Shown: positions 12,935 through 51,768 of the stretch, piece after piece
How positions within the stretch are numbered: the first letter of the stretch is position 1
How the letters are laid out: the number at the start of each line of letters is the position of its first letter
NCBI GenBank assembly: GCA_046543005.1
Contig: JBKHAG010000004.1
Location: 1-51,768, forward strand
DNA length: 51,768 nucleotides
Direction of reading: 5' to 3'
From: Candidatus Woesearchaeota archaeon
Lineage (GTDB): Archaea > Nanobdellota > Nanobdellia > Woesearchaeales > SKGA01
Translations under genes and position numbers: made by a program
Notes under the pieces: generated by a model
What the model was told of the DNA's origin: nothing
The model's database searches: none
The model's input: only the letters and a program-made list of their open reading frames with translations

Positions 12935-13112
12935 GGCCTTGTTCAAAAAGGAGTCTTTATGTATGCTACCTTGCAGAGAATTTTTTTGAAAGTAAATAAG
13001 AAGAACTGTCAAGTTCGCACGTATAATCATTGATTCAAAAATACTGTTTATACGTCCCAAGGCGATAACAATAACGCGCAGTATACAGATTTACAGTATT
13101 TTAAACAAGGCC
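12935..13112. mobile_element. MITE copy A (IS1595-like, non-autonomous)
   Basis: TIR GGCCTTGTTcAAAA / TTTTaAACAAGGCC (13/14); flanks ATAAAATA / ATAAAAATA; interior shared with other copies. Confidence 0.8.
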
Positions 13113-13258
13113 ATAAAAATAGGAATAATAAAAATACTAAAAAGTATGAGAATAAACTACGATAAAACAGGCCATAGTTTAAAATAATAATTAAAGTAAA
13201 GTAAACTAACAATAGAATCTGAAAAAAATAATCTAAAAAAACAATAAAATAAAAAAAA

Positions 13259-13408
13259 TTAAGCCGCAGGACAAAATATTCCTGAACCCATTGGTAAAAT
13301 ACCTTTAGCCATTAAAAATGCAAGCACTAAACCCAGTATTAATCCGATAATGAGACCTTTCATTAAATCAGCCCAACTCATAATCATTCCTTTTTTTGAA
13401 AACAACAT
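13259..13408 (-). CDS. 49-aa membrane protein with class III (pilin-type) signal-like N-terminus
   Basis: Not in the ORF track. MLFSKKG-MIMSWADLMKGLIIGLILGLVLAFLMAKGILPMGSGIFCPAA; GTGAGGT RBS and TTTATAAA at about 13442. Confidence 0.7.
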   Translation of the reverse strand: MLFSKKGMIMSWADLMKGLIIGLILGLVLAFLMAKGILPMGSGIFCPAA

Positions 13409-13491
13409 AATAATAACCTCACTTTATTTGTACTTTTTGTATTTATAAAGTTTTGCTCAAAAACCCTTTAATAATACAATACACTCCCCAG

Positions 13492-14313
13492 CTATTTTAA
13501 TTTTGCAGGTTCGTGTGAAATTAAAAATTTCATTTTTTTAACAAACTCATGAGCTTCGTTAAGCAAGACATCAACTTCTTTGCCAGAAATTTTGGCAAGC
13601 TGATGATGACCAACGTCTTTTGCTAGTTTATAGAGCTTAGTTAATGTAGATACATATTCTTTTTGCAAAAGACGTTTTCTTACAAAATGTTTTTCTAACA
13701 ATTCAGCAACATGGTGCGGTGCTCCAGGAACAACATCAATGTGCATAAGCGCTGAATGTGCAGCGTCAATAACTGCCCAATAACAATCCACAACTATCGA
13801 TAAGTATTTTGATTCAGCAGAATATAATGTTTTAGGTGCTCGTTGATAATATGCCCATACAGCTTCTTTTGTTGGACGAATTTTTCCATCTGTAAGTAAT
13901 GTCTGCATAGGTGAAAAAAAACCTTCATCATATACAGGATAGCCTTCTCGTAAAATATTTACAACAATAGGATCGCCGCTTCGCACATAGCTCCAGTAAT
14001 CACTAATATTCATTGTAGTAATGTGAAAATTATTGGAAACAGTCGCTGCTGTTGTTTCAATAATAACTCTCAAACTAGTCATCACTTCTTTGGAAAGGAC
14101 TATAGAAATGTCGTCAAGAATAAGCAACACATCAAGATCAGATTCTGGTTTTTTTGTTCCTCGCGCAGCGCTTCCAAAAAGTACCACACCTTTGAGTAAA
14201 TCGTGCAGCTCTTTTTTGAGCTTGTTTGCAAACTGTTTTGTAATTTGGATGTCGGACTCGTCGTGATGATACTCGACCGGTCGCTTTTTGTATTGAAAAG
14301 AAATATCTACCAT
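13492..14313 (-). CDS. Minimal nucleotidyltransferase (MNT) fused to HEPN-like domain
   Basis: LFGSAARG...ESDLDVL Pol-beta motif; helical C-terminal half (YWAVIDAAHSALM...HH...AKDVGH). Confidence 0.8.
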   Translation of the reverse strand: MVDISFQYKKRPVEYHHDESDIQITKQFANKLKKELHDLLKGVVLFGSAARGTKKPESDLDVLLILDDISIVLSKEVMTSLRVIIETTAATVSNNFHITTMNISDYWSYVRSGDPIVVNILREGYPVYDEGFFSPMQTLLTDGKIRPTKEAVWAYYQRAPKTLYSAESKYLSIVVDCYWAVIDAAHSALMHIDVVPGAPHHVAELLEKHFVRKRLLQKEYVSTLTKLYKLAKDVGHHQLAKISGKEVDVLLNEAHEFVKKMKFLISHEPAKLK

Positions 14314-14358
14314 TCTCTCACCCTTTTGACATATTTTAACGAGTTATCGTTTATAAAG

Positions 14359-16410: not shown

Positions 16411-16458
16411 AATTCGTTTTTACACCACGCAATACAACTATAACAGCTCAAACAAATA

Positions 16459-21205: not shown

Positions 21206-21206
21206 T

Positions 21207-21341: not shown

Positions 21342-21503
21342 AGTTTCACCTCCAAGGCCATTTTGCCTTGTATATATAATTGAGTAGAAAGTGTTTATAT
21401 ATCTCGCACGAGCATGTCCAGTGCTTGTGTTAATTTCTATATTCATTACTTAAGGGTAGTGTAATATAGAAATATTTATAAATAAAAGGACATTCCACAA
21501 AAT

Positions 21504-21863
21504 ATGAAACCAAAACAAACTCTTGGAAAAATATTATTGTACGGATCATTTCTAGCAACAATAGCAAGCGCATATAATTGCTCTTCAACACAAAATACAA
21601 CCTCAAACAATAAAGAATTTGAATCTGAAAAATTCAAAGGAACAGCAGTATTTAGAGGATATCGATACAAAGGAGATGAGCTTTATGGTGTTCATTTTAA
21701 ATTAGAAGGACAACCCGAAAAATTCACCATTATAGGCAAAGATACAACAGCAGATTATTATTCTAAAACAATACCAGGAAGCAAAATAAAATTCGAAGCA
21801 ATTCAAAAATCAGAAAACGGAAGATATTTTGTAAATGAAAAAAAATTAAAAATAAAAAAATAA
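21504..21863 (+). CDS. Putative secreted or lipoprotein
   Basis: Basic N-terminus, hydrophobic stretch, Cys followed by S/T/N-rich linker, small beta-rich domain. Confidence 0.6.
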   Translation: MKPKQTLGKILLYGSFLATIASAYNCSSTQNTTSNNKEFESEKFKGTAVFRGYRYKGDELYGVHFKLEGQPEKFTIIGKDTTADYYSKTIPGSKIKFEAIQKSENGRYFVNEKKLKIKK

Positions 21864-21868
21864 AAAAA

Positions 21869-22258
21869 TTATTTTGTAACGTCCATTACTTGCACAGCAG
21901 CAGTCGTTTCATGAGAAACACCAACCACAGGACCATTAGAAGTATCAATCGTACAATCAGAACCCTCATTACAAGGAGGAGCAAAATAATCAACCAAATC
22001 ACGACCACCAGCATAATAGTCTTCTACAACACATTTACACCATTGTTGATCACGAACTACAGTTTTATAACTAGTCCCAACAACAGCTTCTCCAGCTACA
22101 TTTGCATCATCAGACACATAATCAGCAGAAGGCATATTCGCAGAACCACCCGTACTTGTCATCATCACTAAACCAATCACTCCAACAATTGCAACAACAG
22201 CAACAAGTGAAAGAAGTGCTAAACTATTATTACTTTTTTCAACGTCATTTTTTACCAT
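21869..22258 (-). CDS. Membrane-anchored Cys-containing surface protein
   Basis: LALLSLVAVVAIVGVIGLV anchor, NVAGEA linker, 4 Cys; GAGGTGA RBS. Confidence 0.7.
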   Translation of the reverse strand: MVKNDVEKSNNSLALLSLVAVVAIVGVIGLVMMTSTGGSANMPSADYVSDDANVAGEAVVGTSYKTVVRDQQWCKCVVEDYYAGGRDLVDYFAPPCNEGSDCTIDTSNGPVVGVSHETTAAVQVMDVTK

Positions 22259-22347
22259 TTTAAAATATTCACCTCACAAAAACGCTTAAAGCATCATGCA
22301 ATAACACACACAAAACAAAAAGACATTTATAAATGTTTCTACAAAAA

Positions 22348-22506: not shown

Positions 22507-22580
22507 TACAAGAAAACCTAAAAAAAGAGCGCGAACAATTGCCAGAACAGATAAAAACAATAAAAAATTGCAATTTTTAA

Positions 22581-22750: not shown

Positions 22751-22852
22751 AATCTTTACAAAAGCTTTATAAATATACTTTAAATTCTTGTCGTAAGCAA
22801 GCACAAATTGTGTGTATTGCTCATTATTATCTATTTGAGGTATTTTTTTACA

Positions 22853-33463: not shown

Positions 33464-33472
33464 AAAATGCAC

Positions 33473-34417: not shown

Positions 34418-34483
34418 ACTATACCCTGTACTATATCTTATGCTATACTTATACCACACATTATAATTTAACGTAATACTTAG

Positions 34484-35719: not shown

Positions 35720-35723
35720 GCTC

Positions 35724-36380: not shown

Positions 36381-36469
36381 GAAAAGTGTTAATAATTAGA
36401 CATTTATAACTATACCTATTCAACTTGTAAAAAAATAATCTGTTAAGATATGAAAGCTATGAATAAAAA

Positions 36470-36634: not shown

Positions 36635-36680
36635 AAGTGATAAAAGAATTGAAGAAGGGTTTATAAATATTATTGTAAAT

Positions 36681-36850
36681 GGCTCTGTCTTGAAGGGAAT
36701 ACAAAAGTATATTGCCCGATATACTTATTGCCTTGGCTTGTGAAGACTAGTTTTGAATCAGTAATTATGTGTGCAAATTCGAAGATTTTTCTTATCTTCT
36801 TCAAAAAAATTGCAAGGCATATAAAAAACATCATCCTCTTAAGAAAATGC
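36681..36850. mobile_element. MITE copy D (degenerate, reverse orientation)
   Basis: Begins GGCTCTGTCTTGAAGGG; reverse complement aligns along copy A and its end matches the right end of copy C; far boundary approximate. Confidence 0.7.
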
Positions 36851-36898
36851 TCGTATACTACTGGCATATACCTCAAGCAAAAACGATAATTACCTGCA

Positions 36899-37825: not shown

Positions 37826-37925
37826 GTAATAAGTAAAATATATAGTATTTATATATTTTATTGTGAATACATATATATTGCTCAAGATCTGTATGCGATT
37901 GAAGGATAATCAGGGGGTGGTTGTC

Positions 37926-38075
37926 GTGATAAATCAATACGCTAAGCAAAAAGAAGACTTTTTTCGTGAAAAGGAGCATCATTTTTACAAAGAAGCGTAT
38001 GTTGAGAGTCTGTTACAAGACGATGAACTTACAAACGAAGAAGCAGCATTTATGAGAGGATATATATCTTCATAG
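37926..38075 (+). CDS. Small acidic protein (DDEL..EE.AFM.GY type)
   Basis: GTG start after GGGGTGG; ESLLQDDELTNEEAAFMRGY. Confidence 0.7.
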   Translation: MINQYAKQKEDFFREKEHHFYKEAYVESLLQDDELTNEEAAFMRGYISS

Positions 38076-38102
38076 TAATTAAAACACTAAAAACGCCAAA
38101 AA

Positions 38103-38200
38103 GCACAATTACACCAAACTCGCAGGTGTTGTGCGTTGTGCTCAAAGCTAAAGCCTTGAGTACAGCAACCAAAGAGGGAGGGGAGTCAATCCGCTCCCTC
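38103..38200. ncRNA. Three adjacent GC-rich hairpins between convergent genes; candidate structured RNA
   Basis: GCACAAttACACC/GGTGTTGTGC; GTTGTGCTCAA/TTGAGTACAgcAAC; GAGGGAG/CTCCCTC followed by a T run. Confidence 0.4.
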
Positions 38201-38231
38201 GACTTTTTCTAAAAAAAGGGTCACAACATAC

Positions 38232-38720
38232 TTAACTTGCTGAAAAAAAACCTTCTCGTTTAATATCATCAACAATATAATTTGTTTGATACTCAAAAAC
38301 ACCAAATTTTTCTTCAAGTAAACGAATAAAAGGCTCTACTTGAGAAATAGAAGGAAAAATGCATTCTACTAAAAAATGAAAACCATTTGCTAAACGAAAT
38401 AAAGAATTCACCGAATCATGAACTCGCAAATAACTTTCTAAATGTGAACGAAACTGAAAAGGAACTTTTAACAAAACTTGCGCTCGAGCATCATAACCTA
38501 ATTTTTTAAAATCTACAAGACTTGTGTGCTTAGTAATTAAAGAATCTTCGTTTGCACGCAACCTATCAAATAATGTCGAAATAGGTATTCTTGTTTGTTT
38601 ACTCATTTGAGTAAGACTCGTTCGTGCATTCGCACGCAATTGTTGTAATAAAACAATATCTTTTTTTAAAATTTTTTGTGTGTGTGGTTCTTCACGTAGT
38701 TTATCCATCAATATCACCAC
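38232..38720 (-). CDS. Lrp/AsnC family transcriptional regulator
   Basis: LRANARTSLTQMSKQTRIPISTLFDRL HTH, DFKKLGY, RAM-like C-domain. Confidence 0.88.
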   Translation of the reverse strand: MVILMDKLREEPHTQKILKKDIVLLQQLRANARTSLTQMSKQTRIPISTLFDRLRANEDSLITKHTSLVDFKKLGYDARAQVLLKVPFQFRSHLESYLRVHDSVNSLFRLANGFHFLVECIFPSISQVEPFIRLLEEKFGVFEYQTNYIVDDIKREGFFSAS

Positions 38721-38874
38721 ACTATATTAGTGCAGTACACTACTAAAAAAGAATCCTTATACTTCTTAAGAAACTATAAGATAAGATAAAGTAATAAAAA
38801 AGTAATTGCGTATAGGAATAAAAAAATAAGAAAACAATAAGAGAAAAAAATAAAAAACAATAAGAAAACAATAC

Positions 38875-39486
38875 TTAGACAAGTTGTTCTTTTGCGCTTC
38901 GAACAATAACAGGGTGTATTCCTTCTTTAATTGCTGCTTTTTCTAAAACATCCAAATCACAAGCATACTCGTTATAAGAAGAAAACATTGCTTTAACATC
39001 TAAGACATCATCGTGATGATTCATAAGTCTACAAGCATGCAAAACGTCTTTTTGACTAAATCCTTGTTTTGATAAATGTTGAGCAATAACAGTATCAGAA
39101 TAACCTTTTTTTCGTTGAGCTAAAATATATGACGTTAAAGATGCTAAGAAAGATTCTTGAGAAGATAATTCTAAATCTTTTCGCGAAGAAGAAAAAGGAT
39201 CTGTTAAAAAAGTAATTGTTAAAAGTATTGAAAAAACAAAGAATCCAATAAGTAGTGTTGAAAGCCAAGAAACGCTAGAAGCGCTATCTTCAGGGGAAGT
39301 AACAGATGCGGATTCTTCAAACGCGAAAATAAAGGATTGATCATCAACAACCATCCCTGCAGTTTTTGCAAAACCAAGATCTTTTGTAGCAGGAGAAAAA
39401 GCAACGACACTTAAAAATAAGATAGTTACAAAAAACATAGTAAGAACTGCATATGAACCAACTGTTTGTTTAAATAAGCGTTTCAT
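38875..39486 (-). CDS. Membrane protein (2 TM) with small helical C-terminal domains
   Basis: Two hydrophobic segments; YI..QRKKGYS...I..HL..QGFS motif. Confidence 0.65.
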   Translation of the reverse strand: MKRLFKQTVGSYAVLTMFFVTILFLSVVAFSPATKDLGFAKTAGMVVDDQSFIFAFEESASVTSPEDSASSVSWLSTLLIGFFVFSILLTITFLTDPFSSSRKDLELSSQESFLASLTSYILAQRKKGYSDTVIAQHLSKQGFSQKDVLHACRLMNHHDDVLDVKAMFSSYNEYACDLDVLEKAAIKEGIHPVIVRSAKEQLV

Positions 39487-39553
39487 CACATACACCTTAT
39501 AGTAATTATAAGTAAAGAACAAGAAAGCAAGTTTAAAAAGGTTTCGTATTTAT

Positions 39554-39751
39554 GGCCTTGTTTAAAATACTGTAAATCTGTATACTGCGCGTTTTTGTTA
39601 TCGTCTTGGAACGTATAAACTTTATTTTTGAATCGAGAATTATAAGTACGAACTTGACAGTTTTTCTTATTCGTTTCAAAACTGGCCAACACGTGCCAAA
39701 GCGATAAGTATATCGGGCAATATACTTTTGTATTCCCTTCAAGACAGAGTC
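39554..39751. mobile_element. MITE copy C (chimeric ends)
   Basis: GGCCTTGTTTAAAA ... CTTCAAGACAGAGTC; flanks GTATTTAT / GTATGTAT (7/8). Confidence 0.8.
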
Positions 39752-39883
39752 GTATGTATCTAAAAAGCTTCAAAAAAGTTTTAAAAATGAAAAATCGCCA
39801 AAAATAAAAGACTAAAATAGAGCAAAAAAAAATAAAAACCACAAAAAGCAATATTTAAAAAAAGAATCCTCTTAACAGACTTA

Positions 39884-40516
39884 ATGAAACTATTTGCTTT
39901 TGGAGATACACACGGAGACTTTTTTGTTTTAGAATATAATAAAGAGCTTGCCAAAAAAGCAGACCTCGTTGCGTGCATTGGCGATGTTAGCGTATTTAGT
40001 GAGCATCTTGAAGAAATTATTCCTCATTTGGCAACGATGCACGAAGATATACTTCTTATTCACGGCAATCATGAAGATGCAGATGATGTAAATGCCTTAA
40101 GTGCACCTCACAAGTCAATACATTTTTGTCATAAAAAAATAAGTAAACGAGAAGGATACACATTCGTATGTTATGGAGGAGATGGGTTTTCTCAAATCGA
40201 TGAAGAATTTGAAACATTTATTGAAAGTATAAAAGATGAACTTACCCCTAAAAAAACAATTTTTATTTTACACGGACCACCACACAATACAAAAATAGAT
40301 GTACCTTTTGAAGACCACCATAGTGGAAGTCTTAGTTACAGAAAAATTATTGAAGACGTCCAACCATTGCTAGTTTTAAGCGGACACATTCACGAAGGAG
40401 AACATCTTATTGATTCTATTGGTAAAACACTCATACTTAATCCAGGACCTGATGGAGAACTTATTGATTTAGAAGTGCTTAGTAAAGAACGAGAAGAAAA
40501 AGAGAAAAAAACTTAA
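39884..40516 (+). CDS. Calcineurin-like metallophosphoesterase
   Basis: DTHG, GD, GNHE, HGPP, SGHIHE, NPG. Confidence 0.9.
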   Translation: MKLFAFGDTHGDFFVLEYNKELAKKADLVACIGDVSVFSEHLEEIIPHLATMHEDILLIHGNHEDADDVNALSAPHKSIHFCHKKISKREGYTFVCYGGDGFSQIDEEFETFIESIKDELTPKKTIFILHGPPHNTKIDVPFEDHHSGSLSYRKIIEDVQPLLVLSGHIHEGEHLIDSIGKTLILNPGPDGELIDLEVLSKEREEKEKKT

Positions 40517-40527
40517 AAAAGGTAATT

Positions 40528-41652
40528 TTATTCATCTACAGGATATCTAAGAATCGCTGCAATACCGCCCAAAGATGCTAATTGAGAACCTTCTTCAGTT
40601 TCAGTGCTTATAATTTCAATAGTTGATCCAAATTGTTCAGCAGCGTCTTCATAATCTTGCAAAGTGGCATCATCAATATCTTCTGAAATTAAAATAATAT
40701 CTACTGCGCCCATATTAACATGACGCAAAACGTCTGCAGAACCATAAGAAACTCTATTAGATTCTTTAGCAAGAGTTTCAAAAAACTGTCTCATTAGTTG
40801 TTTTTCATGAACAACTTCTTCTTCAGCTAAAACATCTTCAGATTTTTCAACAAGTTCTTTAAGACCAAAATCTCCAGTATAAGATAAATCTTTTACAGCA
40901 ATAATTTTTCTTTTTAATTGATCAGTAATATAACCACCCTCCACAAAATCATGTTTTGTAGGACCAGGGCCACCAATAATAATTCCTTGTAATTCTTTGG
41001 AAGATTCTAAAAATTCTTCAGTCATATACTGAGCGATTCGTTTATAAAATTCAATAGCTGCGCCTGTTCGAAGTCGTTCGAATCGTTGAGCGGATTGCCC
41101 GCCTGTTTTATGTTTTCCAGGTACTGCGCTATGAAGTTCTTTAAGAGGAATAATATTTTTTCCTTTAAGAAGAGCAATATTTCCGTCTCGTTTATCCATT
41201 GCAACAAGACCAAACATTATTTTATCATCAAGTATTTCTTTTAGAGGCTCTAAAACGAATTCTTTATCACAACGATACAAATTTTGATTAAGCTCCACAG
41301 GAGGTTGTATGCTCCACACTTTAAAATCTTGTTGACCTTCTCGTTGTGCAGCGTTTCCTGAAAATACGACAAGACCATTGGGAGGAGTTTTTTTAAAAGA
41401 ACGTAAGTGCTGAATCATTTTTTCAAGAGAGGAAATTACACTATCTCGCGTTTGCTTACTTTTGATATTAGTTGCAGTTCCTTGTTCTTGTTGAAGTTGA
41501 TTAATTTTTGCAGTTATATCATAACCAGCAGGAATGTACACACTAATAAGTTCAGTATGACGACCTTTAACAGCTTCCACTTCTCTAAGAAAATGTTTTA
41601 TGTGGACTCTGTCTTTAGCGCTTAAACGCTTTATTTTTTCCTCTTGAGCCAT
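40528..41652 (-). CDS. prf1: Peptide chain release factor aRF1
   Basis: GRHTELIS, NIKS, YRCD, GGQSAQRF, GGIAAILRY. Confidence 0.97.
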   Translation of the reverse strand: MAQEEKIKRLSAKDRVHIKHFLREVEAVKGRHTELISVYIPAGYDITAKINQLQQEQGTATNIKSKQTRDSVISSLEKMIQHLRSFKKTPPNGLVVFSGNAAQREGQQDFKVWSIQPPVELNQNLYRCDKEFVLEPLKEILDDKIMFGLVAMDKRDGNIALLKGKNIIPLKELHSAVPGKHKTGGQSAQRFERLRTGAAIEFYKRIAQYMTEEFLESSKELQGIIIGGPGPTKHDFVEGGYITDQLKRKIIAVKDLSYTGDFGLKELVEKSEDVLAEEEVVHEKQLMRQFFETLAKESNRVSYGSADVLRHVNMGAVDIILISEDIDDATLQDYEDAAEQFGSTIEIISTETEEGSQLASLGGIAAILRYPVDE

Positions 41653-41789
41653 TTACCTTGCAGAAAAAGAAGGGCTTTATAAATCTTGCTTTGTTGCTTT
41701 AAAAAGCAAAAAAATAACCTCAAAAAATACCTAATACAACCATCTCAAACCCTAAAACTTTTTAAAGAACAAAACAATAAACCTTTTCT

Positions 41790-42320
41790 ATGACAATAAA
41801 AAAATCATTTTCAGAACTTGTTAGCGACGTTGAAAACTCAAAAGCATTCAAAAATGTAGAAGATGAAAAAAACTATTATCTTGCACACATTTTTTTTCAA
41901 TTAAACAACGCATTTGAACTTGCTAAGCCAATACAACTTGGTTGGTATTGTAAAGAACAAGATCATTTAAGCATGTTTGAAATTACTTCAGAAACAATAA
42001 AACATAATGGTTTTGAAGAAGCGTTTAAAGACGGAGGTATTATAGAAGAATTACAATTAACTACGTCTTCTTGCACACTTGATGAAGCTAAAAAAATCAT
42101 AGATGAAATACTCAAAAAAGACTTTCCTGAAGAACATCCTAATTCATATTTATGTATTGCTCAAAACGTCAAAGGTAAAAATATTCTTAATTGCACAGTT
42201 ATTTGTATTTCATTTGCCATGATTTCAATCCATATTGATTTAGAAACAAAAGAAGTTATACATAAACAAAAAAATAGTATTCTTGATTTAAAAAAAGAAA
42301 CAATTAAAGGAGAAAAATAA
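41790..42320 (+). CDS. Hypothetical protein
   Basis: 176-aa ORF, TATA-like TTTTTAAA about 25 nt upstream (leaderless). Confidence 0.7.
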   Translation: MTIKKSFSELVSDVENSKAFKNVEDEKNYYLAHIFFQLNNAFELAKPIQLGWYCKEQDHLSMFEITSETIKHNGFEEAFKDGGIIEELQLTTSSCTLDEAKKIIDEILKKDFPEEHPNSYLCIAQNVKGKNILNCTVICISFAMISIHIDLETKEVIHKQKNSILDLKKETIKGEK

Positions 42321-42376
42321 ACATACAAAAAAGATTATTATTGAAGTAATACTCATTTAAAAATTAATGCACTGCC

Positions 42377-43078
42377 TTATTTCCAAAAACTAAAAAGAGA
42401 TTTGGTTGTAGTTATTTTTTTCTTTTTTATAAAACGTTCAAGTTGATGTTCTATATTTTTTACTTTATATTTTTTTTCATCACGTCTAAAAGCTGGCGTG
42501 TGATACTGAGTCTGGCCGCTTTGTGATCGCGTAAATGAATGTTTTTTGTGAAGCAATTCATGATACAAAACGTATTTGAGTAACTCGTTATTTTCTTGTA
42601 AGGCCGTGCTAAGAGTCACTGTGTCTGTTGAAAATGTGTAATGACCAAGCGTTGTTAATGTGTGTTTTCCAAAAACCAAGTTAGGCATGTCCATAAGACC
42701 TTCAAAGTATTGTGTGTTAAGTTCATGAAATAATTCTATAAGTAATGGCTCGCTAGGAGTTCGTTTCGCGTAGCGATTAACGTGTTTCATAAAACCATGA
42801 TATAATTCTTGTTGGGTACTTTCTTTATTAGTTTTAAAAACTTTATTAAGCAAATGTTGAAGAACACCAATAACAATATCATCTTCACAATCTAAAAAAG
42901 CTCGCGAAAGCGAAAAAGTTACTGCTTCAAGTTTTCTTCCTCGTGACGTCATAGACACTGTAGCATTATACTCTTTAAATCTTCCTGAGTATCGCAAAGC
43001 CATTTTTGGCTTAGCAATGTCTTGAGTAAACAATTCAAAAGCAGTATTCAAAAGTTCTTGTGAAGAGAGTTCTACCAT
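42377..43078 (-). CDS. SprT/YgjP-like zinc metalloprotease
   Basis: LGHY, YVLYHELLH (HExxH), HTPAF. Confidence 0.78.
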   Translation of the reverse strand: MVELSSQELLNTAFELFTQDIAKPKMALRYSGRFKEYNATVSMTSRGRKLEAVTFSLSRAFLDCEDDIVIGVLQHLLNKVFKTNKESTQQELYHGFMKHVNRYAKRTPSEPLLIELFHELNTQYFEGLMDMPNLVFGKHTLTTLGHYTFSTDTVTLSTALQENNELLKYVLYHELLHKKHSFTRSQSGQTQYHTPAFRRDEKKYKVKNIEHQLERFIKKKKITTTKSLFSFWK

Positions 43079-43269
43079 AAAAAATACAAACTATGCAGAT
43101 AATAAAAAGCTTTGTAAAAAAAGAAAATAAAACAACAATAAAAAATTATTAAATAAGAAATAATAAATAAAAATCTAAAAATAAGAAAAAAGAAAACACG
43201 CGGTCAAAAAAAAGCTCCTGTGCGATTTGAATATAAAATTCAACTAAAAATAAAAAAGACTGTTAAAAT

Positions 43270-44202
43270 TTAGTCTGCACAGACTGCGTAAACATCTGCA
43301 GTGAGTGCTCCTTGATTGTTTTGATAATATGCGTGAGCTACAGCTCCACCACTATCAAATTCAAAACAAAAGTTTTGTGGACAATATGTTGATCCATCAA
43401 TCATCGGACCGTTTATTCCTTGTCCACCATCAGGAAAGTATACATTTACCATGTACGCGTTTGAAGAAGTATGATTCATGTATTGCACCCCATAATTTTC
43501 AAACCAAAATATTTGTCCTGCTATAATTCCTGTTGTATATCCATTATCTAAAGGCAGTTCTTGTGCTAAAACACTTGGTGTTGTTTGGCAATCATTTGCA
43601 CTTAATTCTCTAAATTGGCCATCAAGCGTTCGATAATACATCATTACACAGTCTCGATTCATATCTGCACATACTTCGTCTGCAGATTTAAAATCTTGTG
43701 TTAATTGTATTTCTTCACCGGTCGCGTATTCTGCCCGAGTAACTAATGCAATTTCTTCGCATTCATTTGCAAAGCAAACTCCTCCACAACGATACTGAGT
43801 TGTTTGAGGTCTATTATACTCCCCACAATATCGTTCAGTTATATATACAGGTAGGCCATTTTCATCTTTAGATGGCGTACATGTATCTTCTAATTGTTGT
43901 CGCCCAGCACTCGTTTTTGTTTTTACTACACCAAATTGAGCATAATTTTTTCCACCGTCTGAATCTTTACAAGATAAATAATTCACAGGCGAATCATCTA
44001 AAGCAGCATCTGCTTGAACAGCCGCAGAAGTAGTAGAATTTTTGTTTTTTAATACTGAAGAAATATCTGTTGCAAAACCTGCAATAGTGTCATTATTTGA
44101 AACTGAATGCGATGGCAAAACCACTACAATTAAACCCACCACTGCAACAACTAAAACCATTGCGAGCATAAAAAAAGCATATTTTTTTTCTTCTTCATTC
44201 AT
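43270..44202 (-). CDS. Membrane-anchored Cys-rich surface protein (CxDSDGG repeat)
   Basis: LAMVLVVAVVGLIV anchor, IAGFA linker, CKDSDGG...DTC...E.YC...C...C...C. Confidence 0.72.
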   Translation of the reverse strand: MNEEEKKYAFFMLAMVLVVAVVGLIVVVLPSHSVSNNDTIAGFATDISSVLKNKNSTTSAAVQADAALDDSPVNYLSCKDSDGGKNYAQFGVVKTKTSAGRQQLEDTCTPSKDENGLPVYITERYCGEYNRPQTTQYRCGGVCFANECEEIALVTRAEYATGEEIQLTQDFKSADEVCADMNRDCVMMYYRTLDGQFRELSANDCQTTPSVLAQELPLDNGYTTGIIAGQIFWFENYGVQYMNHTSSNAYMVNVYFPDGGQGINGPMIDGSTYCPQNFCFEFDSGGAVAHAYYQNNQGALTADVYAVCAD

Positions 44203-44263
44203 TATACTACCTCAAACACAACAATTTTTAACAAGAAATAGTATTTAAACATTGCGAAAACGA

Positions 44264-44446
44264 GGACATGTCCATAAAGGAATCTTTATACGCTGCCTTG
44301 CGGCGAATTTTTTTGAAACGAATAAAGAGAGTCGCAAGAATTGATGATTCGAAATTATAATCCTCGATTCAAAAATACTGTTTATATATGCCAAGCTGAT
44401 AATAATAACGCACAGTATACAAATTAATATCATTCTGGACGTAGCT
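44264..44446. mobile_element. MITE copy E
   Basis: Interior aligns with copy A; degenerate TIR GGACATGTCCA / TGGACGTAGCT; flanks GAAAACGA / AAAAACGA (7/8). Confidence 0.75.
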
Positions 44447-44516
44447 AAAAACGAAGAAAAGAGCAAGTATAGTACAAAAAAGAAAAAAATAAGTGAAATT
44501 CTTACTGTTAGAATAC

Positions 44517-45683
44517 TTAAAACAATACAGATTTCACTATTGGCCAAAGAATTAAAAAAATAACTATAATTGCTAAAAACCAACTCAGTTTTTTCCAGTG
44601 AGCAACTCCTTTTTTCTCACCTTTAGTTCGCGTAAAAGCAAGTCTACTCATGTGACCACCATCAACTGGACCTAAAGGTAATAAATTAAATAATCCAAGA
44701 CCAAGACTTAAAACAAAAATCCATAGTAAGAATTGCGAAAACCAATTTGTTATACCATATACCCATTTAGGAATAGTTTCTTTTACATCAAAGTCTGTTG
44801 CAAGCCCTATAACCCCTAAATATCCTTGCGAAGAATCTTGAGGATGAGCAACAGTAGTTAATGTATGAGAACTATTATTGTTTGCAATAACAAGCGTTTG
44901 ATTGGGTTGTAAAGAGCCAACAGTACTTGTTAATTGTTCTTGAGTAAGTACTGATTGATTATTAATCAACGTGTAGGTTGTTTGTGGCGTAATTCCTGAA
45001 ATATCTGCAGGGAATCCTTCTTGAACACTATCAAAACTAAAACCTACTGGTGCAACCATTGCCATTGTAAGAGGATTAAATACTAACATCATAAGTGCAA
45101 ATGCAATTCCTGCTGTTAAAAAATTCATCCCAGGACCTGCTGCAAAAACAGAATATTTAACAACATCATCTTTTTTTTCGAGTTGTTTATCATCAGGTTC
45201 TACAAATGCTCCTGCGAGGGGTCCAAAAAATACAATTCCTGTTGTTTTTACTTTCACGCCATGAGCACGTGCAACAAGACCGTGCCCTGCTTCGTGAATA
45301 AGCACAACAATAAATAAAGGTATAAGTACCCATAACGGAATAAAAATTGCGCTTCCAGGAATATTTACTCCAGGTAAAACTAAAGAAAAAGATGCTGGCG
45401 CGGTAGGTACAAAAAGTGCTTGATATAATGCGAATAAGACATATCCAAAAATAAAAATCATTCCCGCAAATCCTAAACCTATAAAACAATATCCTAATAA
45501 TTTAACTGTCTGTTGATGTTTTTTTGCATAACGATTCAAAAAAGGGATTCCAAATTTTGTTTTTCGAAGAGCAATAATTCCTTCCCAATCAAATTTTTTC
45601 CTATTGATTACTAAAAGAATAATAATTGTAAGATACACAGCTATTGTTAGCCAATTGTTTGCAAGATATTCAGGTACTGCCAT
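44517..45683 (-). CDS. Site-2 protease (M50) with PDZ domain
   Basis: HEAGH, GAFVEPD, AAGPGMN, NLLPLGPVDGG. Confidence 0.93.
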   Translation of the reverse strand: MAVPEYLANNWLTIAVYLTIIILLVINRKKFDWEGIIALRKTKFGIPFLNRYAKKHQQTVKLLGYCFIGLGFAGMIFIFGYVLFALYQALFVPTAPASFSLVLPGVNIPGSAIFIPLWVLIPLFIVVLIHEAGHGLVARAHGVKVKTTGIVFFGPLAGAFVEPDDKQLEKKDDVVKYSVFAAGPGMNFLTAGIAFALMMLVFNPLTMAMVAPVGFSFDSVQEGFPADISGITPQTTYTLINNQSVLTQEQLTSTVGSLQPNQTLVIANNNSSHTLTTVAHPQDSSQGYLGVIGLATDFDVKETIPKWVYGITNWFSQFLLWIFVLSLGLGLFNLLPLGPVDGGHMSRLAFTRTKGEKKGVAHWKKLSWFLAIIVIFLILWPIVKSVLF

Positions 45684-45899
45684 AAACACTAAACAATAAT
45701 AAGCAACTTATAAAGTTTTGGTAAGAAAGTAGGTGCAAAATAACCCACAAATTGCTTTAAAGTAAAATAAAAAAGAAGTATTTTGTAGTAAAGCCAAAAA
45801 TCTGCGCATTCAATAATTAGAATTTCGCACGTGAAACGAAAATACAAAACTTTACACTATAAAAAAATAATTAAAAAAAAAAATTAATATGCATAAACA

Positions 45900-47699
45900 T
45901 TATATTTTCTTACCAACGTAAGGTCCTTGTTGAAAATACCCTAAGTATTTTTTGTAATATTGACGAACACCAATTCCACTTATAACCAATATATGATTAT
46001 AACCGTTTTCTTTTGCAATTTCTTCTGCGCGTTTCATCAATTTTTTTCCAAAACCTTTGTGCTGTGAAGAACCAATTTCAAAACCCTTATTACTACCTAC
46101 TTGAACGTCGCCTTGTTTAGTGTTTTTCTGCTCTAAACTCTGAGCGCCGACTCCCGAATTGAGTTCCTTTGCTGCGCCGTAGACGTGTAGTTCTCTAATG
46201 AGCGCTGTTGTTGGAGTGATTTCTTCTCGGAGTTGTTGTGAAGGAAAACGAAGTCTACAAAATCCTGCTATTCGATTATTTGCAATATCTTCCATTGCGA
46301 TAAAAAATTCTTTTCCTTGACTTGCTTTGTATTCTGTTACGACTAGTTCAAATACTGGTTTTTGTTTTGGTGCTACTCTTCCTGTTTCTCGAGAACGAAT
46401 TTCTTGTGGATGTTTGTCTCTTTTTTGTATTTCTTTATCAACGTATTGTCGAAGATTGGTTTTATCAACACCTACCATAATCCGATATGTTGGAATATCT
46501 CGTTGCACTCTCATTACTCGACAATAATTAGGAATTTGAGGGATAACTTGTGCTAAAATATCTACAGCAAGAGGTGTTGTTAATGGTTTGTAAAGTCCTT
46601 GCTTAAAATCTTGTTCAAGTTGCGTTCCTGGTAAAACAAGTAAAGGATAGATTTTTATCATATCTGGACGATATGCATCATTAGTAAATAGTTGCAAAAG
46701 ACCTTCAACATCTTGTTGAGGAGAAACTCCAGGAAGTCCCAGCATCATGTGAAAATTAAGTTTGAATCCTAAGTCGCGAAGTTGACGAATACTTTGTATT
46801 GATTCTTTTGACCCATGTCCTCGACTGATTGCGTCAAGAGCTTTATCATATACTGATTGGATTCCTAACTCAACACGAGTTGCTCCTTGTTCAAGCATAC
46901 TATTTCCGTGTTGAACATAGCCCCAATCAGGTCTAGTTTCTATAGTCATACCAATACAACGAATTGTTGCAAACTCATTTTTTTCTTGTTCGTGTTCGAG
47001 ACTGGTTTGTTTTTTTGTTGCTAAGACTTTGTTGTGAATTTTTTTAATACGATCTTCGCAGTAAATATCATCAGGGAGTTCAAAAAACGTTTTGAAGGCT
47101 TCTAAATCAAGCACACCATCAGAAAAAAATAGTTCAGAAAATGTATTCATTGCATTAAGCACATCACAAACGAACTGGTCTTGATACTCTTTAGTTCGCG
47201 CAGGAAATGTTCCGCCCATAATAATAACATCAACTTTTTGAGGATTATGACCGGTAACAACATATTGTTCTAATCGATTAAATACTTGTAAATAAGCATC
47301 AAATTCTGCTCGCTCTGCACGCATCGTTGCAGGTTCTGCACCTGTATAACTTTGTGGTTTATCTCCCCAAGGACTTTTAACACCGCCCGGACACATTCGA
47401 CATTTCCCATGAGGACAGGGGTGTGGTGAAGTCATAAGGGCAACGGGCGTTACACCACTCAAGGAATTATTTGGTTTGGTTTGTAAGTGGTGTTGATATT
47501 TTTTTGCAAAGGAAGATTTTGCACGTAAATAAAGTTCTATATCAGTTGGGATTTTTTTAATACTCGTATATTTTTTACATAATCTAACTTTAAGTTTTGC
47601 AATATCTTCTTTAGTATAGTGTGGATTTTTTTCTAATTCCAAGAAAAAATTATGTAAAAAGAGCTGCATTTGAGTTTCATAGTCTGCGCGCGATGACAT
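45900..47699 (-). CDS. elp3: Elp3 radical-SAM/GNAT tRNA U34 carboxymethyltransferase
   Basis: CPHGKCRMCPGG, QSYTG.EPA, MGGTF, ETRPD, RVQRDIP, RELHVYG, QHKGFG, SGIGVRQYY. Confidence 0.95.
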   Translation of the reverse strand: MSSRADYETQMQLFLHNFFLELEKNPHYTKEDIAKLKVRLCKKYTSIKKIPTDIELYLRAKSSFAKKYQHHLQTKPNNSLSGVTPVALMTSPHPCPHGKCRMCPGGVKSPWGDKPQSYTGAEPATMRAERAEFDAYLQVFNRLEQYVVTGHNPQKVDVIIMGGTFPARTKEYQDQFVCDVLNAMNTFSELFFSDGVLDLEAFKTFFELPDDIYCEDRIKKIHNKVLATKKQTSLEHEQEKNEFATIRCIGMTIETRPDWGYVQHGNSMLEQGATRVELGIQSVYDKALDAISRGHGSKESIQSIRQLRDLGFKLNFHMMLGLPGVSPQQDVEGLLQLFTNDAYRPDMIKIYPLLVLPGTQLEQDFKQGLYKPLTTPLAVDILAQVIPQIPNYCRVMRVQRDIPTYRIMVGVDKTNLRQYVDKEIQKRDKHPQEIRSRETGRVAPKQKPVFELVVTEYKASQGKEFFIAMEDIANNRIAGFCRLRFPSQQLREEITPTTALIRELHVYGAAKELNSGVGAQSLEQKNTKQGDVQVGSNKGFEIGSSQHKGFGKKLMKRAEEIAKENGYNHILVISGIGVRQYYKKYLGYFQQGPYVGKKI

Positions 47700-47774
47700 A
47701 AAAAAGAAAAAAGAGGAGTTGTTTATAAGGGTGTTGAAAAACAGATATTAAGGTGTTAAAAAAGCTAAAAACTG

Positions 47775-48842
47775 CTAAAAATCACAAACTGCTTGCAAAA
47801 CTTCATACCAATTTTTAAGCGCTTTGTAAGATGACATTTCATAATTAGTATGATAATACATGGTAGGAAGTTGTAGTGTTGTTCCATTAGATTTTCCTTG
47901 AGTATGAGCAACTATTGCTCCTAATTCAGTTCTTCCTAGTGAACGTTGAGAAACAGTCGGATCGTTTTTTGTTCGTTGATTTCTTAACTGAATATACTTG
48001 TCTTTAATACGATAAGGAATATTTTTTTGCTCACAAATAGATTGAATACTAGTAACCATTTGTTGACTAAATGAGGCGTATTCGTCTTTTGTTCGAAGAA
48101 CTACAGCTCCTTGTTGTAAACTTGTTGCTTGTTTGAAAGGCGAAGTATCTAAAGTTAGTATGTTTTGAGATGTAAAATGTATTTTTTCTAAACAAGAAAG
48201 AATATGTTGCCAGCTCCTGCCAATTTCTTCTTCGGCAACGAATAATACTCGCCCTTTAAAACCATCGGCAAGTGCTTGCATTGCAACAGCAACACTTATA
48301 CAGTTATCAAGTTGTGAAGAAAATGTTGTCTTGGTTTCTTTAACATATGATTCTAAAGCAATAGGAGTTTTTGGTTTAAGTTCTTGAGCTTTTGCATCAT
48401 CATCCCATTCAATAGTGTAATATACTCTTTTTTTTGAGAAATCAAATTGCGAACCATTAATTGCTCCAGCAACTAATTTTTTACCTGTTTGAGAATTATA
48501 AGCAAATATTCGTTCACCCATGTAACGAGCAGCTGTTTTTTCAAAAATTATTTTTTCCTGATAAAAATCATCACCGTGCTCGTGTTTACGATAAAATGCT
48601 GCAAATTCAACTTGTTTATTTTGATTAAGAATAAATCCGTGTCTATCAACATGAATAGTCAACATTTTATCTGAAGGAGTTTTTGTTGCGCTAACAAGAA
48701 GCCAACTTTTTGATTTTTGCACGATAAAACCTTCTTTAGTCGCAAGACCAGCTAAAAAATCTAAAAATAGTGTTTCAAAACCAACAACACTAGGCAGCAA
48801 TATATATTCCTGTAAACGTTGAAGAATTTTTTGTACGACCAT
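47775..48842 (-). CDS. M42/M20-type metallopeptidase
   Basis: PSVVGFE, HVD, LDN, EEIG, LDT, TE, YHT metal-ligand pattern. Confidence 0.8.
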   Translation of the reverse strand: MVVQKILQRLQEYILLPSVVGFETLFLDFLAGLATKEGFIVQKSKSWLLVSATKTPSDKMLTIHVDRHGFILNQNKQVEFAAFYRKHEHGDDFYQEKIIFEKTAARYMGERIFAYNSQTGKKLVAGAINGSQFDFSKKRVYYTIEWDDDAKAQELKPKTPIALESYVKETKTTFSSQLDNCISVAVAMQALADGFKGRVLFVAEEEIGRSWQHILSCLEKIHFTSQNILTLDTSPFKQATSLQQGAVVLRTKDEYASFSQQMVTSIQSICEQKNIPYRIKDKYIQLRNQRTKNDPTVSQRSLGRTELGAIVAHTQGKSNGTTLQLPTMYYHTNYEMSSYKALKNWYEVLQAVCDF

Positions 48843-48963
48843 GATGAACAAAATAAACTATTTGGATTTTAAATACATTTGGAATTTAAGATACTTAGTT
48901 AAGAAAAGAGTATACAAATTATAATAAACAAAATTTAAAAAGCCATAAGCAAACACAAACTCC

Positions 48964-50148
48964 ATGAAAAAAGAAGTTTTTGAAGGAAGACTACGTCTCA
49001 CGGTCGATACTGATGCTGTAGTTTCCAAAGAGTTAGAAGTTTTTTATAATCCTAAAATGGCTCTTAATAGAACTCTTAGCTGTAGCATTCTTAAGGCTAG
49101 TGAAAAAAAAGATATGCATATCGCCCTTCCTTTAGCAGGAACAGGCATTCGAGCTCTTCGTTTATTAGACGAATTACGTTCTGAAAATATTAAAAAAATT
49201 TGGGTTAATGATAAAAATTCAGAATCAAAAAAATATTTTTTATATAATGCACAACAAAATAATATGCACTCGTTAGTTAAAGATAAAGTAGAACTTGTTC
49301 AAAAAGATGCAAATGTTTTTTTACAAACAAGCGAGGGTTTTGAGTATATAGATATTGATCCTTATGGCAGTCCTAATTTTTTACTTGATTCAGCAATTTC
49401 TCGACTAAAAGAAGGGGCTATTCTTGCAGTTACTGCAACAGATACTGCTGCTCTTAGCGGAACCTACCCTTGTGTTTGTAAACGTAAATATTGGGCACAA
49501 TCTGCTCGTTGCCCACAACAACACGAAATGGGTCTTCGAATTTTAATTCGTAAAGTACAACTTATTGGGATGCATTGCGAACGCGCACTCACACCAATTC
49601 TTAGTTATCATCATCAACATTATTATCGAATATTTTTTATTTCAACAAAAAGCAAATCAAAATCATCTGCACTTTTTACTCAAATTCAAGAATACTTTTT
49701 ATTTTGTTCAAAATGCGGTTTTCATACAACACAACAAGCGATAATAAAAACGTGCCCGTATTGTTCTGCTACTATGCAATTGTGTGGACCACTATATACG
49801 GGATCTATGCAAGACGAAGAGTGGTTAAACAAATGCATTAGTCAAACAGACGCAAAAGAAAAAGAAGCTTTGCGAGTTCTTAAACAATTACAAAAAGATA
49901 GCTTACTGGATAAGGAGTTTACTTTAGAAGAACATAAAAAAAATAAAGCAAATAAAATAAAGAGTATTGTGGGAAGTTATGATACGCACCAGTTATGTAA
50001 ACGCCATAAACTTTTAGTGCAACCCCTTCAAGAAACAATTAAAAATCTCGTTGATAAAGGATTTGTTGGGACGCGTAGTTGCTTTCCTTTAACAAGTATT
50101 AAAACTACTGCTGATTTTAAAACCATTCTTGAGTGTTTACGAAAATAA
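48964..50148 (+). CDS. trm1: tRNA (guanine26-N2)-dimethyltransferase
   Basis: VFYNPKMALNR, AGTGIRALR, DIDPYGSP, TATDTAAL, HEMGLRIL, CxxC zinc ribbon. Confidence 0.95.
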   Translation: MKKEVFEGRLRLTVDTDAVVSKELEVFYNPKMALNRTLSCSILKASEKKDMHIALPLAGTGIRALRLLDELRSENIKKIWVNDKNSESKKYFLYNAQQNNMHSLVKDKVELVQKDANVFLQTSEGFEYIDIDPYGSPNFLLDSAISRLKEGAILAVTATDTAALSGTYPCVCKRKYWAQSARCPQQHEMGLRILIRKVQLIGMHCERALTPILSYHHQHYYRIFFISTKSKSKSSALFTQIQEYFLFCSKCGFHTTQQAIIKTCPYCSATMQLCGPLYTGSMQDEEWLNKCISQTDAKEKEALRVLKQLQKDSLLDKEFTLEEHKKNKANKIKSIVGSYDTHQLCKRHKLLVQPLQETIKNLVDKGFVGTRSCFPLTSIKTTADFKTILECLRK

Positions 50149-50234
50149 TACAAAAGAGTAAGACAACTAACAGTAAAGAAGAAAAACTAACAAAGAAAAA
50201 AATAGATGATAAGAAAAATAGTTCTTCTCAACAA

Positions 50235-50456
50235 TTAAAACGCCACGTATTCACCGTCTTCTTTAAGTATGTGCTGTGCAATGAGTTTGTCTAAAAGTGC
50301 GTACACTTCATCTTCGCCAAAACCAATTTGCTCAGCTTCAAAAAGAAGTGTTTCTTTACGTACTCGGCCAAATTTATCAGTTACTAAAGTTTGAAGTAAA
50401 GAAAGTAAATCCACAGTTCTATCTAATTGACGATCACGCGCAAGGCGTTGAGCCAT
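50235..50456 (-). CDS. Small winged-helix-like protein
   Basis: MAQRLARDRQ...LLFEAEQIGFGEDEVYALLDKL...LKEDGEYV; start reassigned to 50456. Confidence 0.55.
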   Translation of the reverse strand: MAQRLARDRQLDRTVDLLSLLQTLVTDKFGRVRKETLLFEAEQIGFGEDEVYALLDKLIAQHILKEDGEYVAF

Positions 50457-50577
50457 GTTTGTTTGAATTTGTGATACAGAAAAATCGTTTGTCAATATTG
50501 TCCCCCAGTATGCACAATTCACATAGAATATATATACTTTGCGCTCCAAAGAGAGTAAAAACCATACTATTTGAGAA

Positions 50578-51603
50578 TTATGAAAAAAATATTGCTGCTG
50601 CAGAATATAATGTGTGAAGTGTTCCTGACCATGAAAGCACTCCTGATTCTACAATTGCACCAATGATAAACAATACTAATGCACAAACAAAGAGCCAATA
50701 ATTATACTTAAACACTTGACGATGTTTTTTGTCCAAAAATGCGAAACGTAAAAAATAAACCACGAGTAAAACAGTAACCATTCTTAACAAAATAATAATA
50801 GGAATTATAGTAATAAAAGAAAATACAATATTTAAAACATAAAATAATAAAATTCCAAAAAGCATGAGCCCTAAAAATTTATTCATCTCATTTGATTCTG
50901 AGACGATATCACTACTTATGATAGCTCCCGCTATGCCTGCTAAAATATATGCCCCGCCTTCTAAGATTACATGCGGTAAAACTATTGCTTGCATAGTAAG
51001 CAAAGAACCCACTGCTGATTTTCCCAAAACTGCTGCTGCAGCCACTGCTCGCATACCAAAAATCGCACCCCACGCTGAAGCATTCCATACAATAAAAAAT
51101 GTTGCTCCATTACCTGTAAGAAGCGAAAGACCAAAACAAGCAAGTAAAACCCACCAATTATTATGTAAAATACTCCACAAGGTTTGAAAACTAAATGCGG
51201 TTGCTCGACCTTGCACAGCAGGATCTAAAAATAATTGTTCTTGAAACATCGAAATAACATCCCAACCAAAATAGGTTCCTGCAAATGAAAGTAAAAGATA
51301 CGTTACATAAACGCCAAAAAATATCCCCACATAAGCATGTATTAAACCTTTATTATCTGCATATAATCTCTTTAAAGAAAAACCTCTTTCATGTTCTTCA
51401 AGACGTTCTTCTTGATTAATCATTTTATACATTGAAGGTATAATTAAAAGAGATGAAAAAATAACTGAAGCAAGTCCTGAATTTGCACCAAATAAAAGTT
51501 GAGCTAAAACTATTCCAATTAAGGAAGAACCAGCTCCTAAAAGTAATGCGAAACCAAATCTTTTTTCAAGCCAATTTGATGGAAATAAATTTTCTAAAAC
51601 CAA
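50578..51603 (-). CDS. SpoIIM/DUF95-family membrane protein
   Basis: Multiple TM helices, ILHNN, WNAS.WG, LPHVILE, GAIVES. Confidence 0.8.
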   Translation of the reverse strand: MVLENLFPSNWLEKRFGFALLLGAGSSLIGIVLAQLLFGANSGLASVIFSSLLIIPSMYKMINQEERLEEHERGFSLKRLYADNKGLIHAYVGIFFGVYVTYLLLSFAGTYFGWDVISMFQEQLFLDPAVQGRATAFSFQTLWSILHNNWWVLLACFGLSLLTGNGATFFIVWNASAWGAIFGMRAVAAAAVLGKSAVGSLLTMQAIVLPHVILEGGAYILAGIAGAIISSDIVSESNEMNKFLGLMLFGILLFYVLNIVFSFITIIPIIILLRMVTVLLVVYFLRFAFLDKKHRQVFKYNYWLFVCALVLFIIGAIVESGVLSWSGTLHTLYSAAAIFFS

Positions 51604-51662
51604 ATAATCTCAACCTCTACACGTAATTAACAATACAGAGTTTATAAATGTTAAGGTGAAGT

Positions 51663-51768
51663 GGCCTTGTTTAAACTACTATAAATTTGTATACTGCGCA
51701 TTATTATTTTTTTTTATTATTATTATTATCGCCTTGGGACAAATAACGGGCGAGCGGTGAACAAGTAA
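51663..51768. mobile_element. MITE copy F (reverse of the B type; truncated by the window end)
   Basis: GGCCTTGTTTAAA...GTATACTGCGC...ATCGCCTTG.GA.AAATAACG...GTGAACA.GTAA matches the reverse complement of copy B. Confidence 0.78.

Follow-up and report, generated by a model that had tools for sequence, protein, structure and literature searches.

Miniature transposable elements at a fixed distance upstream of host TATA boxes in a Woesearchaeota genome

Introduction

In yeast, Ty3, a long terminal repeat (LTR) retrotransposon with an integrase of the retroviral type, inserts at the start sites of genes transcribed by RNA polymerase III (Pol III), and its contact with TFIIIB, i. e. with the TATA-binding protein (TBP) and Brf1, has been demonstrated. 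The archaeal homologue of Brf1/TFIIB is transcription factor B (TFB). Here we report on miniature inverted-repeat transposable elements (MITEs) in a Candidatus Woesearchaeota archaeon which stand at a fixed distance upstream of TATA boxes, separated from them by the putative TFB recognition element (BRE). The work started from contig JBKHAG010000004.1 of assembly GCA_046543005.1, a stretch of 51,768 nucleotides that was analysed at its full length (the window), and from an earlier note, made from these letters alone, which had proposed that TBP and TFB guide the insertions.

Integration upstream of promoters was reportedly described for the TnGBS conjugative elements by Brochet in 2009. In Bacteria, the TnGBS, ISLre2 and ISKra4 elements use Mutator-like transposases and integrate at a distance of 15-17 bp upstream of sigma-A promoters; by analogy with Ty3, the authors suggested that these elements contact the initiation complex (Guerillot 2014, PMC3942029). 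In the part of that paper available to us, the only archaeal content is an AT-rich duplicated target (AANATNTT) of ISH6. The elements described here share with the bacterial ones that a prokaryotic DDE (Asp-Asp-Glu) transposon inserts at a fixed short distance upstream of a promoter and spares it. Whereas the bacterial transposases are Mutator-like (p-MULT, with a motif between N1 and N2), the enzyme here is by its predicted sequence IS5-like (PF01609); the target here is an archaeal BRE/TATA and not a sigma-A -35 box; and insertion occurs in both orientations instead of mostly one with the right inverted repeat (IRr) at the promoter. The resemblance is one of behaviour and not of descent.

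We know of no member of the IS5 family that is phased to a promoter element. In the literature searched, mostly at the level of titles and abstracts, no description of a TATA- or BRE-phased insertion sequence (IS) or MITE in archaea, or of a promoter-phased IS5 element, was found. In this respect the novelty claimed in the earlier note stands for archaea, whereas for prokaryotes as a whole TnGBS, ISLre2 and ISKra4 are a precedent. The promoter-phased strategy itself is already known in Bacteria; what is new here is the transposase family and the archaeal transcription machinery at which it is directed.

Results

A fixed register between MITEs and TATA boxes

The window is the entire contig C25 of the genome under study (G000), which comprises 789 kb in 33 contigs with about 32% G+C. 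Its completeness is rated 94.5%, open reading frames (ORFs) cover about 87% of it, and the contig ends of the assembly often carry copies of the MITE repeats. Relatives within the same order have genomes of 0.6-2.7 Mb, and G000 is a small-genome archaeon of the DPANN type.

Tips of the GGCCTTGTTYAAA family (GGCC family, with an L and an R end) were collected in G000 by blastn-short with two end probes, which gave 76 tips, i. e. 29 paired copies and 18 single tips. A TATA box was scored as a match of at least 7/8 to TTTAWAWA, and its distance d was counted in nucleotides outside the element tip. At exactly d = 14 a TATA box was found in 35 of the 76 tips, 21 of them with a perfect match. The remaining offsets between 0 and 49 had 0-4 tips each, with the exception of d = 12 with 12 tips, which arise because the TATA motif overlaps itself. 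When both orientations were scored, 40 tips qualified (29 perfect), and the end facing TATA was L in 18 and R in 22 of them. Among the 29 elements with both tips, TATA was present on one side in 23, on both sides in 3 and on neither side in 3, so that 26 of 29 have it on at least one side. The null expectation for a TATA box at a fixed distance is 4.8% (104,705 non-ORF positions).

The 8-mers flanking the elements match in at least 7/8 positions in 17 of 29 elements, compared with 55 of 20,000 random pairs (0.3%). With a length of 155-210 bp, the inverted repeat GGCCTTGTTYAAAA, flanking 8-bp direct repeats, many copies and no transposase gene, the elements are MITEs, i. e. non-autonomous DNA transposons with real 8-bp target duplications. 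The spacing between element and TATA is a fixed register, and selection alone is insufficient to account for it.

These results agree with the earlier note in most respects. The seven distances that it had given for the window (14 for B, C, E and F, 13 for D, 15 for G and 41 for A) are correct to the base. Its view that the elements are MITEs with 8-bp duplications, that the target sequences differ between insertions and that either end may face the promoter extends to the whole genome, where the duplications vary by copy. The same is true of its reading of the spacing as duplication plus a 6-nt BRE, and the comparison with a null model that it had proposed separates the observed distances clearly from the background.

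Two copies in contig C20 (1230-1439 and 11946-12133) have TATA at 14 nt on both sides, and their flanking 8-mers do not match (1/8). Recombination between two copies at divergent promoters would give such a pattern.

Elements and TATA boxes in the window

The features are given by position in the window; a strand is stated where one was assigned.

12886-12893: TATA box TTTATAAA, the nearest to A, 41 nt from 12935
12935-13112: MITE A, GGCC family with L and R ends; exception, TATA absent at 14 nt; duplication ATAAAATA/ATAAAAAT, match 6/8
22326-22333, minus strand: TATA box TTTATAAA of the leftward gene beside B (ORF 21869-22258)
22334-22339: putative BRE beside B, 6 nt
22340-22347: first 8-bp duplication copy of B, TACAAAAA
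22348-22506: MITE B, GGCC family, L end towards TATA, 14 nt between
22507-22514: second duplication copy of B, TACAAGAA, match 7/8
22572-22580: first 9-bp duplication copy of G, AATTTTTAA
22581-22750: MITE G, inverted repeat GGRTTTGTCCTAAG
22751-22759: second duplication copy of G, AATCTTTAC, match 7/9, followed by the gap AAAAGC and then TATA
22766-22773, plus strand: TATA box of the rightward aIF5A-like gene, 15 nt from G
36660-36667, minus strand: TATA box beside D, 13 nt from D; a tRNA-Gly(UCC)-like gene, recognised by eye, would be transcribed from it
36681-36848: element D, tip GGCTCTGTCTTGAAGGG; left tip exact, right limit approximate (extent of blastn matches)
39532-39539, minus strand: TATA box TTTTTAAA of the leftward gene beside C (ORF ending 39522, in-frame ATG 39486), 14 nt from C
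39546-39553 and 39752-39759: duplication copies of C, GTATTTAT and GTATGTAT, match 7/8
39554-39751: MITE C, a chimera whose left end is an R end of the GGCC family and whose right end is of the D type
44242-44249, minus strand: TATA box TTTAAATA of the leftward gene beside E (ORF 43270-44202), 14 nt from E
44256-44263 and 44447-44454: duplication copies of E, GAAAACGA and AAAAACGA, match 7/8
44264-44446: MITE E, tip GGACATGTCCATAAAGG, about 75% identity to A
51641-51648, minus strand: TATA box of the leftward gene beside F (ORF 50578-51603), 14 nt from F
51663-51768: MITE F, GGCC-family R end; the contig end interrupts the element

Since the chimera C still has a 7/8 flanking duplication, its mixed ends seem to have been mobilised as one unit. 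The earlier note had regarded G as unrelated to the other elements. This does not hold: G has an inverted repeat of the type found in the others (GGGTTTGTCC) and a 9-bp duplication, and it belongs to the same superfamily of ends.

The tRNA-Gly gene that the earlier note had placed next to D is only partly borne out. By eye a tRNA-Gly(UCC)-like gene can be read at about 36470-36637 on the minus strand (GCACTGG...CTTCCAA...CCAGTGCACCA), which begins about 23 nt past TATA and seems to be interrupted by two introns, the first behind the anticodon loop and the second within the T arm; yet neither ARAGORN (intron and no-intron modes) nor Rfam gave a match.

Apart from the elements, an 83-nt repeat with 90% identity is present at 961-1055 and 1363-1445. 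Read on the minus strand, its predicted product is an acidic tail, rich in Glu and Lys, that terminates in a Gly/Ala/Leu-rich motif, and we take this tail to resemble the common C-terminal tails of ribosomal stalk proteins.

TATA boxes and BREs belong to host promoters

In G000, TATA-like 8-mers peak at 30 and 31 nt before the first ATG, where they precede 118 and 81 (together 199) of 679 ORFs, while the background is about 10-25. This spacing is that of leaderless genes, and a large share of the G000 genes appear to belong to this type. The TATA boxes beside the elements are located where such promoters sit, as the earlier note had assumed. An outward ORF (at least 40 aa) starts 43-49 nt from 18 of the 40 TATA-bearing tips and 50-140 nt from a further 18, with none within 140 nt in 4, whereas a start at 43-49 nt was found in only 2 of 35 tips without TATA. 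TATA variants at the targeted sites include TTTATAAA, TTTTTAAA, TATAAAAA, CATATAAA, TTAATAAA and ATTAAATA. The six bases between duplication and TATA follow the pattern R-N-A-A-Y-A, as they do in 210 leaderless promoters without an element, and this stretch is most probably the BRE of G000.

An empty site is available for MITE B. The segment 8133-9024 of contig C1 is a paralogue of window 21456-22347 (93.7% over 894 bp, the last 485 bp identical) which spans two small ORFs and their promoter and lacks B. It reads TTTATAAA-TGTTTC-TACAAAAA, followed by the sequence that is found after the second duplication copy of B in the window. For element G, the aIF5A promoter AAAGC-TTTATAAA is kept in same-genus genomes without the element, where this promoter and the divergent one are 16-30 nt apart with no element between them. 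The empty paralogous site and the element-free orthologous promoters place TATA and the 14 nt outside the element. Hence TATA and BRE belong to the host, and the flanking 22 nt, whose membership in the element the earlier note had named as a possible objection, do not belong to the MITE.

Three metagenome runs contain the window, and no RNA run is listed among them. Logan contigs over 31800-51768 end at element borders, and one contig spans E in run X1. In these contigs, which drop rare variants, no joint that precisely skips an element was seen, i. e. no empty allele.

Related end families and the six-nucleotide gap

Besides the GGCC family, G000 has the families H (GGSBYTGTCCCA, interior about 83% identical to A), G (GGGTTTGTCCTAAG) and D (GGCTCTGTCTTG), and the end type GGNNNTGTYC is common to these three. 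For the H family, nine clean L tips were available, and seven of them have TATA at 14 nt. The copies with 9-bp duplications, i. e. a G copy in contig C28, element G of the window and an H copy in contig C27, stand at d = 15; the G copy in C28 has a perfect 9-bp duplication and a 6-nt gap. With 9-bp duplications at 15 nt and 8-bp duplications at 14 nt, the constant is the 6-nt gap (the putative BRE) between duplication and TATA.

In contig C13 the order is TATA-tattcc-CTATAAAT, then an H element, CTATAAAT again, and then a GGCC element. This arrangement shows a second insertion at the same promoter-proximal site, by which the earlier copy was displaced outward.

MITEs and insertion sequences in other genomes of the order

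With element A as the DNA query, 60 relatives gave nothing but a single 23-nt chance match. Matches of 20 nt to the element ends in four genome and three metagenome contigs were rejected as chance: most of these contigs are unrelated, with 44-59% G+C (L017: 31%), three of them match over no more than the word of about 20 nt, and the other four gave no hit at E <= 1e-3.

A degenerate end pattern was then used on 401 genomes of the order. It is multicopy in G149 (25), G388 (11), G380 (7) and the same-genus G001 (6), and TATA stands at 14 nt in 8 of 24 tips in G149, where one end type was sampled, in 8 of 11 in G388, in 5 of 7 in G380 and in 2 of 6 in G001. The copies in G149 are near-identical MITEs of 156 bp, with perfect 8-bp duplications in 14 of 15 and TATA on one side in 12 of 15. 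In G388 all four complete MITE copies follow the rule. The copies in G001 and G380 lie about 138 nt from contig ends, with an ORF that opens about 47-55 nt from the tip; their interiors are absent from these assemblies. These copies are full insertion sequences whose interiors were not binned.

Full-length insertion sequences obey the rule in 12 of 12 copies in three near-complete genomes. G335 has a 1030-bp IS, which encodes a 304-aa transposase, with TATA at 14 nt in 5 of 5 copies (8-bp duplication perfect in 4). Of the two IS copies in G174, the one that is flanked by 8-bp duplications has TATA at 14 nt and the one flanked by 9-bp duplications at 15 nt. G235 has five copies of 890 bp, all with perfect 9-bp duplications, four at 15 nt and one at 14 nt. 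Inverted repeats were found at eight further loci, of which six clearly obey the rule, one has a TATA match of only 6/8 and one is degraded. In a distant subgroup with the ends GGCTAATATGAAA, the arrangement of 9-bp duplication, 6 nt and TATA is present in 4 of 4 cases, with the tip corrected by eye. The rule is common to transposases that are only about 25-40% identical.

The IS ends L071 (G001) and L120 (G046) have a TATA-like box of their own at 18-25 from the tip, and the transposase ATG follows at 48-49. The transposase gene would accordingly be leaderless, and once the IS has inserted, its promoter and that of the host gene would stand back to back.

The transposase

Transposase homologues were found in 58 of the 401 genomes, and one homologue comes from a Candidatus Pacearchaeota record. 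None of the conclusions depends on the unpublished genomes G225, G148, G318 and G329. A 197-aa fragment from G046 and its homologues P0001 and P0002 match Pfam PF01609 (DDE_Tnp_1) with 39.6-61.5 bits (cut-off 23). The best NCBIfam match is the IS5 equivalog NF033579 with 116.7 and 115 bits; since even the best score, 117 bits when rounded, is below the cut-off of 140 bits, the enzymes seem to form a distant IS5 clade. In an alignment of 23 sequences D115, D188, E245, Y238, R241 and K252 are invariant, and the signature Y-(2)-R-(3)-E-(6)-K is present. The G235 transposase is about 29% identical to P0001. The full-length relatives are like the IS5 family in the DDE triad, in the Y-R-E-K spacing, in having only one transposase ORF (about 300 aa) and in short inverted repeats starting with GG, and their transposase is an IS5-like DDE enzyme (PF01609). 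The ISH1 and IS903 groups of this family have duplications of 8-9 bp, as here. The earlier note had expected an autonomous relative of the IS1595 family. This assignment was rejected: PF12762 was not found in G000, and the autonomous relatives with the same ends carry PF01609.

The end of the G001 IS (GGCGTTGTTCAAAAAGG...ATGTATACTG) resembles by eye the G000 MITE end (GGCCTTGTTCAAAAAGG...ATGTATRCT). The G000 MITEs are taken to derive from the IS5-like IS clade of this order.

The database protein P0003 (791 aa) is a 'fusion' of the transposase with SufB, whose linker translates an IS end and a TATA-like run before the SufB methionine. Judged from the protein, its apparent origin is an IS insertion directly before a leaderless sufB gene, which the gene caller read through.

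Discussion

The best overall explanation of these data, to which we give a probability of roughly 0.55, is promoter-phased integration of IS5-like elements with a register set by TBP-TFB. The MITEs, of about 155-210 bp, would be non-autonomous and descend from a clade of IS5-like DDE insertion sequences in this order of small-genome archaea. The transposase would cut the target in a staggered way, 8 or 9 bp apart, with the promoter-proximal cut 6 bp upstream of TATA, i. e. at the upstream edge of the BRE. With a cut at this position, the element end would be 14 or 15 nt away from TATA whichever way round the element inserts, without damage to the core promoter or the gene. Insertion upstream of promoters may by this be a safe haven in a genome of which about 87% is ORF.

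TFB contacts the BRE, as is known from structures. That promoter-bound TBP-TFB, or the DNA distortion that they cause, sets the register has in our view even or slightly better chances. It is favoured because the spared 6 bp are exactly the BRE that TFB covers, because the recognition is one-sided and independent of element orientation, and because a transposase that reads BRE/TATA would compete with the factors at active promoters. TFB is encoded in G000. Recruitment of the transposase by promoter-bound TFB/TBP or by their bend would be the archaeal DNA-transposon counterpart of Ty3-TFIIIB tethering; this more specific proposal is tentative and falls a little short of even odds. Like Ty3, the elements integrate with near nucleotide precision beside a promoter, if guided by TBP/TFB then beside a complex of the TBP/TFIIB family, and could thereby find a safe haven in a compact genome. 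Unlike Ty3, they are DNA transposons upstream of TATA, and contact of the transposase with TBP/TFB is only proposed.

Several points weigh against this interpretation. A transposase domain that reads AAYA-TTTAWAWA directly would yield an identical genomic pattern. The more consensus-like BRE and TATA of the targeted promoters are compatible with a role of promoter occupancy, but equally with direct reading. The H family, unlike the GGCC family with its nearly even use of both ends, shows an orientation bias, with the L end towards TATA in 7 of 9 clean L tips (e. g. at C6:9766, C8:151 and C12:151). Exceptions to the register exist: 3 of 29 elements including A, D with its 13 nt and one H copy (C2) with a 5-nt gap. 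The promoters were assigned by position. No transposase homologue was found in G000 (0 matches), and the link between the MITEs and the insertion sequences rests on the common terminal sequence GGNNNTGTYC..AAAGG..GTATACTG, which was read by eye. A pairing search in G000 gave no long element with inverted repeats.

TBP (PF00352) had no match in the G000 assembly, which contains TFB; as the genome is rated 94.5% complete, the gene may simply be unassembled. A complex prediction with TBP, the TFB core and the transposase of G335, each given as an alignment, had a score of 0.01 and neither supported nor contradicted a contact.

The alternative that comes closest requires no host factor: on naked DNA the transposase would recognise BRE/TATA on its own, by sequence or by intrinsic shape, and make its cut a fixed distance away. 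This is a real possibility, which we nevertheless consider rather doubtful. It would fit the finding that targeted sites are nearer to the consensus, with a perfect TATA in 29 of 40 sites versus 111 of 221 promoters, A at the last gap position in 70% versus 39%, and C in 42% versus 19% beside TATA. It would also fit the conservation of the rule among transposases of such low identity, as a conserved DNA-binding domain could be kept. Yet recognition would then be on one side only of a target that is cut by a presumably symmetric enzyme, although either element end may face the promoter, and a range of TATA variants is in use. Moreover, BRE and TATA at active promoters are generally expected to be occupied by TFB and TBP.

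Random intergenic insertion with purifying selection against copies that break promoters or genes is much less probable than direct reading, indeed very improbable. In so compact a genome insertions in genes or between TATA and the start codon would be lost. However, selection of this kind sets a minimum and not a single distance, as the earlier note had rightly argued, whereas offsets 15-49 have 0-3 tips each compared with the 35 at d = 14. There is also room for other positions, since at least 10 nt of non-ORF DNA lie past the far tip in 21 of 23 one-sided elements (median 121, neighbouring elements included). A model of uniform insertion plus selection gives log10 P = -41.8, and the near-identical and hence recent G149 copies already obey the rule (12/15).

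That TATA and the 14 nt belong to the element as an outward promoter, which would make the constant distance trivial and which the near-palindromic TTTATAAA might allow, as the box alone leaves the direction unclear, can practically be dismissed: between the inverted repeat and TATA lies an 8-bp duplication that varies by copy, TATA, gap and target stand element-free in the C1 paralogue and in same-genus orthologous promoters, and the TATA-to-ATG geometry is the same in 210 element-free promoters.

Of all steps in DDE transposition, the choice of target is the least understood, and tethering by host factors is documented mainly in eukaryotes. Here a one-gene IS family and its MITEs mark archaeal core promoters to the exact base in many uncultured archaea with small genomes, and this makes it possible to test cleanly whether a transposase can be guided by the archaeal TBP/TFB complex. 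After the Ty3-type elements and the bacterial TnGBS/ISLre2 group, this is a third independent safe haven upstream of promoters. If recruitment by TBP/TFB is true, Archaea, Eukarya and Bacteria, the last of these with sigma factors, would each have evolved on their own the targeting of the initiation complex as a safe haven, and the elements would naturally write DNA upstream of archaeal core promoters, always in the same register. Since every insertion marks a promoter, the elements can aid annotation, and they may become a tool for promoter-proximal insertion in archaea. They also offer an account of how mobile elements can multiply in genomes that are nearly all coding.

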